From the sequence record OR846308.1: a stretch of 1,140 nucleotides of DNA. One strand, given 5' to 3'. The position numbers and the translations under genes were made by a program. Shown here piece after piece: positions 1 through 1,140 of this stretch; positions within the stretch are counted from its first letter, which is position 1; every line of letters begins with the position of its first letter. The DNA is from a phage. The notes under the pieces are model-generated. The model saw only the letters and a program-made list of their open reading frames with translations, ran no database searches and had not been told where the DNA came from.

Positions 1-24
1 CATTATCGGTTTTCCTTTTGGTTT

Positions 25-59
25 ATAAACGAAAACGCCAGCCCTGTTCAGGCTGGCGT
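25..59 (-). terminator. Rho-independent terminator for the minus-strand operon
   Basis: Perfect 9-bp GC-rich inverted repeat: arms 35..43 (ACGCCAGCC) and 51..59 (GGCTGGCGT), 7-nt loop 44..50. On the minus-strand transcript the stem is followed by UUUCGUUUAU (plus-strand 34..25). It sits 28 nt downstream of the small ORF stop. No T-run follows the hairpin on the plus strand, so it is directional. Confidence 0.7.
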
Positions 60-87
60 CAGTGGAATGAAGTATGGTGAGTGAGAC

Positions 88-285
88 TCACCGGTTCTGT
101 TGCAGAAGCTGCAGTTGGCGCAGGGTACGGACATCTTCCCTGACCTGTTCGATACAGGGCAACAATGCTGCCGAATCCGTTTTATCCTCATCGTTGTCGA
201 AGATAATTCCGGATTCGCTGTCGATATTGTCCTGCAGCCACGCAATCAGAATATCCAGTGCTGTTTCCGTGGTTAATGATTTCAT
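88..285 (-). CDS. Small acidic hypothetical protein, ~65 aa (possibly DUF957-like); alternative upstream start at 330 would give 80 aa
   Basis: Minus-strand ORF with stop TGA at 90..88. Preferred start is ATG 285..283, preceded by AGGAA (294..290) and lying 11 nt after the YeeW-like stop. The ATG at 330..328 has no visible SD and would overlap the upstream gene by 34 nt. Product MKSLTTETALDILIAWLQDNIDSESGIIFDNDEDKTDSAALLPCIEQVREDVRTLRQLQLLQQNR has about 13 acidic and 6 basic residues. Amino-acid composition looks protein-like, unlike the alternative-frame ORFs. DUF957 assignment is from memory and tentative. Confidence 0.6.
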   Translation of the reverse strand: MKSLTTETALDILIAWLQDNIDSESGIIFDNDEDKTDSAALLPCIEQVREDVRTLRQLQLLQQNR

Positions 286-294
286 GTTGTTCCT
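286..294 (-). promoter_or_regulatory. Shine-Dalgarno for the small acidic ORF
   Basis: Minus-strand TAA-CC-AGGAA-CAAC-ATG: AGGAA at 294..290 with a 4-nt spacer to ATG 285..283. Confidence 0.5.
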
Positions 295-296
295 GG

Positions 297-788
297 TTAC
301 CAGTCGAAAGTGGGTAAACCCGGCAGGCATTCAGCGCTGGCATCCAGATGAATGAGACTGACGCCATAACGCCGGATGAGTGTGACGACCAGACGACGGA
401 ACGTTTTTGACAGACCCAGGCGTTTAAGCCGCAGAACCGGGTACGACCACGCATCGGTACGCAACAGATAGCCGTTACCGGTAAAATGAATCCATTCTGA
501 TTCACCGAAGTCACTGGTCTGGTGTGACAGCGAGTACAGCCAGGCGTTGTCCGTTTCCGTGATATGTGCGGTACTGCAGCGTATGCCGGTAAGGGCAGTA
601 AATGGTGGCGTGCAGTCTGCTGAGGTCCGGTCAGATTCATCAACAACACGAAGGGAGTAGCCGTTATCGCAGACCATGTTAATCAGTTCAGCGAGCTCAA
701 TACCATCAATGTCAACGACAATTCGCCCCATGTTCAGTGCCTGTACGTTAACGCTGTCGGCTTCCAGTGTCAGGGCCAGTTTCATCAT
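297..788 (-). CDS. yeeW: YeeW-like hypothetical protein, 163 aa, function unknown
   Basis: Uninterrupted 163-codon minus-strand ORF, ATG at 788..786 (second in-frame ATG at 785..783), stop TAA at 299..297. The start overlaps the toxin stop (ATGA). A GGAGG Shine-Dalgarno (797..793 on the minus strand) lies 4 nt before the first ATG and 7 nt before the second. Position directly downstream of the toxin and the N-terminus [26 protein letters not shown] match my recollection of YeeW-family proteins; recollection only. Confidence 0.75.
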
Positions 789-797
789 TTCGCCTCC
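783..797 (-). promoter_or_regulatory. Ribosome-binding site and ATGA stop/start overlap coupling the toxin gene to the YeeW-like gene
   Basis: Minus-strand sequence GGAGGCGAAATGATGAAA: GGAGG sits inside the last toxin codons, and the toxin TGA (787..785) overlaps the downstream ATG (788..786). Confidence 0.6.
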
Positions 798-1140
798 GGA
801 TACTTACCCAGGGTAATGTTATTTACCGTTCTGTAATTGTCGCGGGTCATCAGGCCGGTCGCCCTGCGAGCCCGGAGGATATCGATGCTGTTTATTAACT
901 GAGAGCGGGTACAGGCGCTGAATCCCGGCTGGTCGGTACGCACCAGCACGTATTTTTCCACGAGAAAGTTCACCGCATCACACAGTGAAATACCTGCCTC
1001 AATATGCTGCTCAATCACACGTTCATCAGCGAACGGTGTGTCATTCAGCGTGAGGCCGTAGTGCTGGTCCAGCAGACGGCCAAGCAGTGTCTGCCAGATG
1101 GTGACGGGAGACGGGCAGCGAGATACCTCCCGTACATGTG
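785..1140 (-). CDS. cbtA: CbtA/YeeV-family type IV toxin (cytoskeleton-binding toxin targeting FtsZ/MreB), C-terminal part; 5' end lies beyond the window (frame-aligned codon begins at 1138), stop TGA at 787..785
   Basis: The minus-strand frame is open from the window edge to the TGA at 787..785. It translates to ...[117 protein letters not shown]. From memory this is near-identical to E. coli CbtA-family toxins (YeeV, and most like YpjF); no alignment was run. The listed 77-aa ORF (785..1018) is only the stretch after an internal Met. A full-length protein of about 124 aa would start roughly 20 nt past the window end. Confidence 0.88.

Follow-up and report, generated by a model that had tools for sequence, protein, structure and literature searches.

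The gene studied here belongs to the DUF957 family (legacy Pfam entry PF06117), whose members have also been called L0009 in the flank of the locus of enterocyte effacement (LEE) of EDL933, Aec78 in the AGI-3 island of avian pathogenic Escherichia coli, and orf55 in the Shigella resistance locus (SRL) island. A published table of the SRL island lists the genes in the order YeeV/L0007, YeeW/L0008, L0009 (DUF957) and L0010 (DUF4942) (PMC6980539). Our copy lies in 1,140 nucleotides (nt) of phage record OR846308.1 (hereafter the window, meaning the whole stretch analysed), in which all genes are on the minus strand. It likewise comes after DUF5983 (L0008/YeeW/Aec77) and before DUF4942 (L0010/Aec79), and differs from the family in nothing substantive: residue 23 is Ser where Cys is usual, and residue 48 is Val where Ala is.

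A 2026 study described the AntiFam entry ANF00264 just after DUF5983 and next to cbtA/cbeA, sometimes fused to DUF5983 (in proteins named Aec77 or CP4-44); its authors regard the 'spurious' call as false and present a confident AlphaFold2 homodimer model (PMC13294457). The described position matches that of the window gene, as does the likely quaternary structure, the match being by description only; the programmed-frameshift idea of that study is, in contrast, unsupported here, spacer and frame being variable. ROP-like helical-hairpin homodimers, which form four-helix bundles, are also among the closest known systems, and the antirestriction proteins ArdA and Ocr offer a further comparison. 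ArdA and Ocr are acidic, are encoded by mobile elements, are expressed early or from the establishment region, and act as dimers. DUF957 is also acidic and encoded by mobile elements, and keeps similar genomic company (KlcA and leading-region families), but it has no sequence or fold similarity to them and is much smaller, with two helices and its charge in one turn rather than over an elongated surface.

Our preferred reading, to which we give a probability of roughly 0.4, is that DUF957 is an acidic, probably dimeric helical hairpin that binds protein through its invariant acidic turn and serves in a leading-region-like establishment module, likeliest together with DUF5983 and/or DUF4942. 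For the mechanism we infer a small, probably homodimeric (four-helix-bundle) acidic binding protein, whose invariant acidic turn would fit against a basic patch on a partner protein, and which would have its role in an 'establishment' programme common to such modules and to plasmid leading regions.

The gene is already known: it is annotated, has an exact RefSeq entry, and belongs to a named DUF family. In the protein collection the window protein has an identical entry, WP_032167930.1, a 'DUF957 domain-containing protein'. A homologue search found 367 relatives (E values down to 1e-36), many of them named DUF957 domain-containing protein or Aec78. Identity to hundreds of DUF957-named proteins is 85-94%. 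An initial annotation of the window, made from the letters alone, had mentioned DUF957, and the exact match and the so-named homologues prove that name right. The hidden Markov model search that it proposed against Pfam, DUF957 included, gave no match at E<=1 in the 2025 copy of Pfam-A, whether for the window protein, its Serratia homologue or longer relatives, and membership follows instead from sequence identity to DUF957 proteins. The precomputed Pfam columns were likewise empty for all 120 homologues listed. Because of these two results the DUF957 model appears to be absent from the Pfam releases searched, its name surviving in NCBI annotation. Scans of Pfam, NCBIfam, PHROGs and PADLOC with the 65- and 80-amino-acid (aa) forms and ten longer relatives returned nothing, or weak Zn-ribbon matches in fused tails, and PDB sequence searches with a single sequence or a profile gave no match for DUF957 or DUF4942.

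Two start codons had been left ambiguous, and both ATGs are present: the list of open reading frames (ORFs) gives 88..330 as 80 aa from ATG 330, with an internal ATG at 285 that yields 65 aa. The predicted translation start is 285, not 330, for the following reasons. A Shine-Dalgarno AGGA (294..291) stands 5 nt ahead of ATG 285, and none is found ahead of ATG 330 in the window sequence. When homologues are aligned, residues ahead of Met-1 are unrelated between proteins (MSAGPAHF..., MASVSFIW..., MFFPYRPD...), and conservation starts exactly at Met-1 of the 65-aa form, M(K/E/M)(S/P)LTTE. In-frame stops interrupt the 330 extension in loci L001 (O157) and L011, and the start called by the NCBI Prokaryotic Genome Annotation Pipeline (PGAP) for the O157 orthologue is that of the 65-aa form. 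The product from ATG 285 (MKSLTTETALDILIAWLQDNIDSESGIIFDNDEDKTDSAALLPCIEQVREDVRTLRQLQLLQQNR) was described in the initial annotation as small and strongly acidic, with a net charge of about -7 and a D/E-rich stretch. This is borne out: there are 13 D/E and 6 K/R residues, the charge at pH 7 is -7.5, the isoelectric point is 4.16, and the acidic stretch (DNIDSESGIIFDNDEDKTDSAA) spans residues 19-40.

Selection was measured on 17 distinct nucleotide copies of the gene, taken from Escherichia, Shigella, Enterobacter and Serratia and from IMG/VR or metagenome contigs. Ratios of nonsynonymous to synonymous substitution (dN/dS), calculated for each pair by the Nei-Gojobori method, had a median of 0.156, and the summed ratio was 0.135. 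In a six-frame control with 15 sequences, the DUF957 frame alone was stop-free (ratio 0.13), while the other five frames held 10-48 stops and had ratios of 0.28-2.1. The low ratio and the sole stop-free frame mark the ORF at 88..285 as a real protein-coding gene, translated on its own and held under purifying selection. Chance-level conservation and a non-coding substitution pattern, either of which the initial annotation would have counted against the gene, were both looked for, and neither was seen among these relatives.

An AlphaFold2 model built from a 39-sequence alignment (pLDDT 88.5, pTM 0.72) has a helix at residues 6-22, a short beta-turn region at 27-37 and a second helix at 38-64. 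The predicted fold is a two-helix hairpin joined by a nearly invariant acidic turn, IIFDNDEDxTDS; fold searches with the model returned generic helical hairpins only, and no DNA mimic. Conservation in the family peaks in this turn, which also bears most of the negative charge: the loop carries -4.8, helix 1 -2.9 and helix 2 +1.3. N20 and D30 do not vary in any of the 39 sequences, and in a 36-sequence alignment conservation is 90% or higher at L10, W16, L17, F29, N31, D32, T36, S38 and P43, giving the family signature L..IL..WL.DN[IV]D....[IL]IFDNDxDxTDS..LLP. The window protein holds every near-invariant position of the signature (L10, W16, L17, N20, F29, D30, N31, D32, T36, S38, P43). Acidity is a trait of the family: the domain charge averages -6.4 in 39 homologues, and longer relatives reach -10 to -25. 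One protein, P0185, has a natural tandem duplication of the DUF957 domain, which we take as a hint of a possible dimer. As to the cysteines, residue 23 (codon 219..217) is Ser in both the window and the O157 copies and Cys in 24 of 39 family members; the second common Cys (residue 44) is kept in the window protein, and neither is invariant across the family.

The gene is part of a conserved tail, cbtA – DUF5983 – DUF957 – terminator hairpin – DUF4942, which recurs across genera in a tRNA-associated enterobacterial island module. The full module reads DUF945/932 – antirestriction (PF03230) – RadC – DUF987 – CbeA – CbtA – DUF5983 – DUF957 – DUF4942. The position after DUF5983 and before DUF4942 is shared by the window, L002-L004, L008, L027 and L032. 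All complete copies examined have a PF03230 gene (KlcA/ArdB type) a few genes upstream, in agreement with the earlier remark that islands of this type carry anti-restriction genes. The gene directly after DUF957 is DUF4942 in Escherichia, Shigella, Enterobacter and Serratia, and also in unplaced metagenomic loci. Serratia has cbeA instead of DUF5983 on the upstream side, with DUF4942 still downstream. Fusions of DUF5983_N to DUF957 form three independent clusters (P0157, P0158 and P0165); contig L022 has such a fusion followed by DUF4942, with no cbtA or cbeA, and in GCA_000496755.2 the N-domain is fused to DUF957 and the C-domain of DUF5983 has a gene of its own in another part of the module. 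Judging from Serratia, L022 and GCA_000496755.2, therefore, the stable links of DUF957 are to the DUF5983 N-domain (by fusion) and to DUF4942 (by adjacency), not to the toxin-antitoxin pair. DUF5983 is itself modular: its C-domain occurs alone, or joined to an N-terminal region of unrelated sequence (231 aa in Serratia), or separated from the N-domain by a Cys-rich insert (247 aa), as seen at L009 2049-2744, L030 3774-4094 and L032 4252-4995.

Relatives outside the islands bear on the establishment part of the reading. By tblastn, DUF957-domain relatives occur on 1334 plasmids, of which 1222 are conjugative, most being ~50% identical over residues 10-53. On the IncHI2 plasmid p14EC029b (L026 8974-9781) a 103-aa 'DUF957 domain-containing protein' is encoded 4 nt before a DUF3085 gene, in an array of small ORFs running in one direction. 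DUF3085 is reported to be the most enriched family in broad-host-range conjugative plasmids (PMC12826799, Nucleic Acids Research 2026). A relative on a Klebsiella pneumoniae MOBH plasmid sits in another one-direction array of small ORFs, which runs into psiA, and one relative is 600 nt from a NikA/relaxase pair. Longer relatives are found among small early genes beside gp32, RecA and exonuclease genes, and also in lambdoid-type regions. A 'Top 100 leading region families' table lists other members of this company, namely DUF905, DUF945, KlcA, DUF4942/methyltransferase and DUF5983 (PMC11541004). The genomic company is that of plasmid leading regions, in which anti-defence genes are concentrated, and is as expected of establishment or anti-defence genes, which is an association only.

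Several findings weigh against a role in an establishment module with DUF5983 or DUF4942. DUF957 is not listed in the leading-region table of PMC11541004. The plasmid relatives are not beside DUF4942 or DUF5983, the gene downstream on the IncHI2 plasmid being DUF3085, and the partner may therefore not be a neighbour. Between DUF957 and DUF4942 stands a strong terminator. No homologue of known function came out of the Pfam, NCBIfam, PDB-sequence, PHROGs and PADLOC searches. A natural read-through fusion, DUF957–linker–DUF4942 (P0212), was folded as a single chain with a combined alignment to stand in for a complex; it gave pLDDT 52.8 and pTM 0.44, with no confident interface and no usable DUF4942 fold, and is therefore uninformative on a DUF957-DUF4942 interaction, either way.

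Of the alternatives, the one that survives best, itself unlikely, goes back to the initial annotation and holds that DUF957 is a stand-alone DNA mimic, whose acidic surface imitates the phosphate backbone and blocks type I restriction or another DNA-binding defence protein, as ArdA and Ocr do. A net charge of -7 in 65 aa and the acidity of the whole family, greater still in the longer relatives, fit such a role, and so do the KlcA/ArdB-type antirestriction gene in the same module and the relatives in leading-region-like plasmid arrays and phage early regions. Small dimeric DNA mimics of similar size exist, phi29 p56 being an example. However, searches of Pfam, PHROGs and PADLOC found no similarity to ArdA, Ocr or another family, and there was no PDB-sequence match. 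A check of the predicted structure for a mimic-like charge distribution, as the initial annotation had suggested, gives a divided answer: the protein is acidic, but the charge sits in one turn at the end of the hairpin, with helix 2 slightly basic, unlike an extended phosphate-like array. The charge density is ~0.11 per residue, and that of Ocr is higher. The strict invariance of F29-D30-N31-D32, T36 and S38 suggests specific docking or a structural turn, not diffuse charge. A wider proposal, which we likewise consider doubtful, would make DUF957 the core of a widespread, unrecognised establishment/anti-defence family, in which the dimeric acidic hairpin would decoy a DNA-binding host defence protein of a restriction or other system, possibly with DUF5983 and the methyltransferase-associated domain DUF4942.

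Less probable again is a small metal-binding protein of EF-hand-like helix-loop-helix type, with the acidic turn as a Ca2+ or Mg2+ site, an idea that is compatible with the binding hairpin we prefer. The EF-hand consensus is a 12-residue loop between two helices, with D at position 1, D/N at 3, D/N/S at 5, G at 6, a hydrophobic residue at 8 and E/D at 12. DUF957 has the helix-loop-helix topology and an acidic loop of 12 residues, F-D30-x-D32-x-D34-x-T36 fits positions 1, 3, 5 and 7, and helix 2 starts at loop position 9. But the loop has K/N at position 6 instead of Gly, D at 8 instead of a hydrophobic residue, and L at 12, where Glu/Asp is essential; in Pfam, models of the EF-hand and related families gave no match even with the threshold at E<=1.

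We consider it very unlikely that the CbtA/CbeA type IV toxin-antitoxin module has in DUF957 a third component that modulates the toxin or antitoxin or serves it as a chaperone. The gene does lie two genes past cbtA in most islands, its start overlaps the cbeA stop in Serratia, and an association of the downstream genes with cbtA has been noted (PMC13294457, PMC10790755). Yet obligatory co-occurrence is contradicted by L022, where the DUF5983_N–DUF957 fusion and DUF4942 have no cbtA or cbeA nearby, and by plasmid and phage relatives that lack cbtA/cbeA inside the inspected flanks; moreover it is the upstream neighbour that varies (DUF5983 or CbeA), while DUF4942 downstream is constant.

That the ORF is spurious or an out-of-frame tail of DUF5983 (an AntiFam-type 'frameshifted phage protein', or a programmed-frameshift extension as in PMC13294457) is effectively excluded: the position reported for ANF00264 (PMC13294457), the lack of a matching model in the current Pfam-A copy or the precomputed Pfam matches, and database proteins that join DUF5983 fragments to DUF957 (e.g. 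P0123) might be cited for it, but the frame is the only stop-free one, with dN/dS of 0.13, the gene has its own Shine-Dalgarno and ATG, the spacer after DUF5983 varies and the frame relation is unconserved, the Serratia gene comes after cbeA and not DUF5983, plasmid copies of the domain occur without DUF5983, and the database fusions resemble frameshift or assembly variants with unrelated N-terminal extensions. Among relatives the spacer from the DUF5983 stop to the DUF957 ATG is 11, 16, 19 or 29 nt, and the frame relation of the two genes is therefore not conserved. Programmed frameshifting from DUF5983 was rejected on this variation in spacer length and frame, and on the gene's own start signals. 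An alternative frame across DUF5983 (window 188-649, minus strand) is open for 153 codons. In copies with another spacer length this frame enters DUF957, producing the spurious N-terminal extensions of many database proteins (e.g. P0009, P0021 and P0038), and it also gives open frames of 170-200 codons in L002, L004 and L014.

The features of the window are collected in Table 1. Over its full length the window shares 98.1% identity with the selC/LEE-flanking island of E. coli O157:H7, where PGAP labels the corresponding genes 'TA system toxin CbtA family protein', 'DUF5983 family protein' and 'DUF957 domain-containing protein'. At 785-788 the ATG of DUF5983 and the stop of cbtA overlap in the sequence ATGA, a sign that DUF5983 may be translationally coupled to the toxin gene.

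Table 1. Features of the OR846308.1 window, with coordinates counted from its first nucleotide
Feature	Coordinates	Strand	Remarks
cbtA (yeeV-type) toxin gene, 3′ part	785..1140	minus	Pfam CbtA_toxin 6.2e-58; gene cut by the window edge
DUF5983 gene, N and C domains, 163 aa	297..788	minus	Pfam DUF5983_N 1.7e-31, DUF5983 1.7e-22
Non-conserved upstream extension	286..330	minus	From alternative ATG 330; overlaps DUF5983 3′ end in another frame; outside the protein
DUF5983-DUF957 spacer	286..296	minus	11 nt, DUF5983 stop TAA 299..297 to DUF957 ATG; direct sequence reading
DUF957 coding sequence	88..285	minus	65 aa; ATG 285..283, stop TGA 90..88
Intrinsic-terminator-like hairpin and U-run	23..60 (stem 60..34)	minus	Between DUF957 and the next gene; terminator scan
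DUF4942 gene (L0010/Aec79), Shine-Dalgarno and start only	1..17	minus	AAGGA 17..13, 9 nt, ATG 3..1; remainder beyond the window

The hairpin has an 11-bp stem and a folding free energy of -20.8 kcal/mol (z -5.09), as low as which none of 200 shuffled sequences folded, and it is followed by UUUUCGUUUAU. It is conserved in 11 of 12 loci, which come from Escherichia, Shigella, Enterobacter and Serratia, and it shows hardly any covariation; since the conservation is of the sequence itself, covariation offers no independent support. A scan with Rfam found no RNA family within the window. The initial annotation had placed the ORF last in its operon, just before the terminator. A terminator does follow the ORF, but this is not the last gene: a co-directional DUF4942 begins at 3..1, and was missed because the window edge hid it.

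In O157 the coding sequence annotated from that same start is a degraded DUF4942. Intact DUF4942 genes of 280-285 aa are in place at L002-L004, L009-L011, L013, L015, L016, L027 and L032. They start 75-96 nt past DUF957, across the same hairpin, in E. ruysiae, E. albertii and Shigella, on several IMG/VR contigs, and on one plasmid and one metagenomic contig. At L005 and L013 a 12-nt CTCACTCATCAT-like duplication stretches the DUF957-DUF4942 spacer from 84 to 96 nt. The locus of O157 strain PV15-279 (L001 11045-14626), the nearest complete genome, has an ISEc31 insertion that truncates cbeA and leaves cbtA, DUF5983 and DUF957 intact; stops split its downstream DUF4942 into three fragments.

In the window 87 nt lie between the DUF957 stop and the DUF4942 ATG, which are in frame and have no other stop between them. 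This arrangement gives rise to natural read-through fusions of 375-378 aa in metagenome data (P0212, P0215 and P0216). Conserved stop-codon read-through into DUF4942 was considered and rejected, the frame being open and continuous in E. coli and Serratia and not in L016, L022, L030 and L032; compared across these loci, the in-frame spacer is probably a coincidence.

The family is narrow, with only 90 clusters (50% identity) at E<=1e-3 among 1.8 billion representatives, and one of its proteins, P0001, has an internal duplication of WLQDNIDCESGIIFDNDED. By PGAP annotation a DUF957 gene is present in 3968 of 5426 complete E. coli genomes (~73%), almost always on the chromosome, with a median of 2 copies and up to 9. 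In K-12 MG1655 (L028 3441-3758) there is no intact copy at CP4-44: yeeW is the DUF5983 N-domain only (64 aa), and a remnant of DUF957, residues 36-65, remains just downstream. It seems that a single deletion took the DUF5983 C-domain together with the first half of DUF957; this loss may be the reason that the family has gone unstudied in K-12. Two K-12 genes were rejected as counterparts of the window gene, yeeW as a truncated DUF5983 and ypjJ as a YeeT-like gene between yfjY and yfjZ (PMC10846083).

DUF957 is thus a family very common in the islands of pathogenic E. coli, Shigella and Salmonella and in large conjugative resistance plasmids, no longer recognised by current domain libraries and perhaps even listed as spurious. 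Its strong purifying selection, and its travel with genes of leading-region type, make it a reasonable candidate for a plasmid or island establishment factor or an anti-defence factor.

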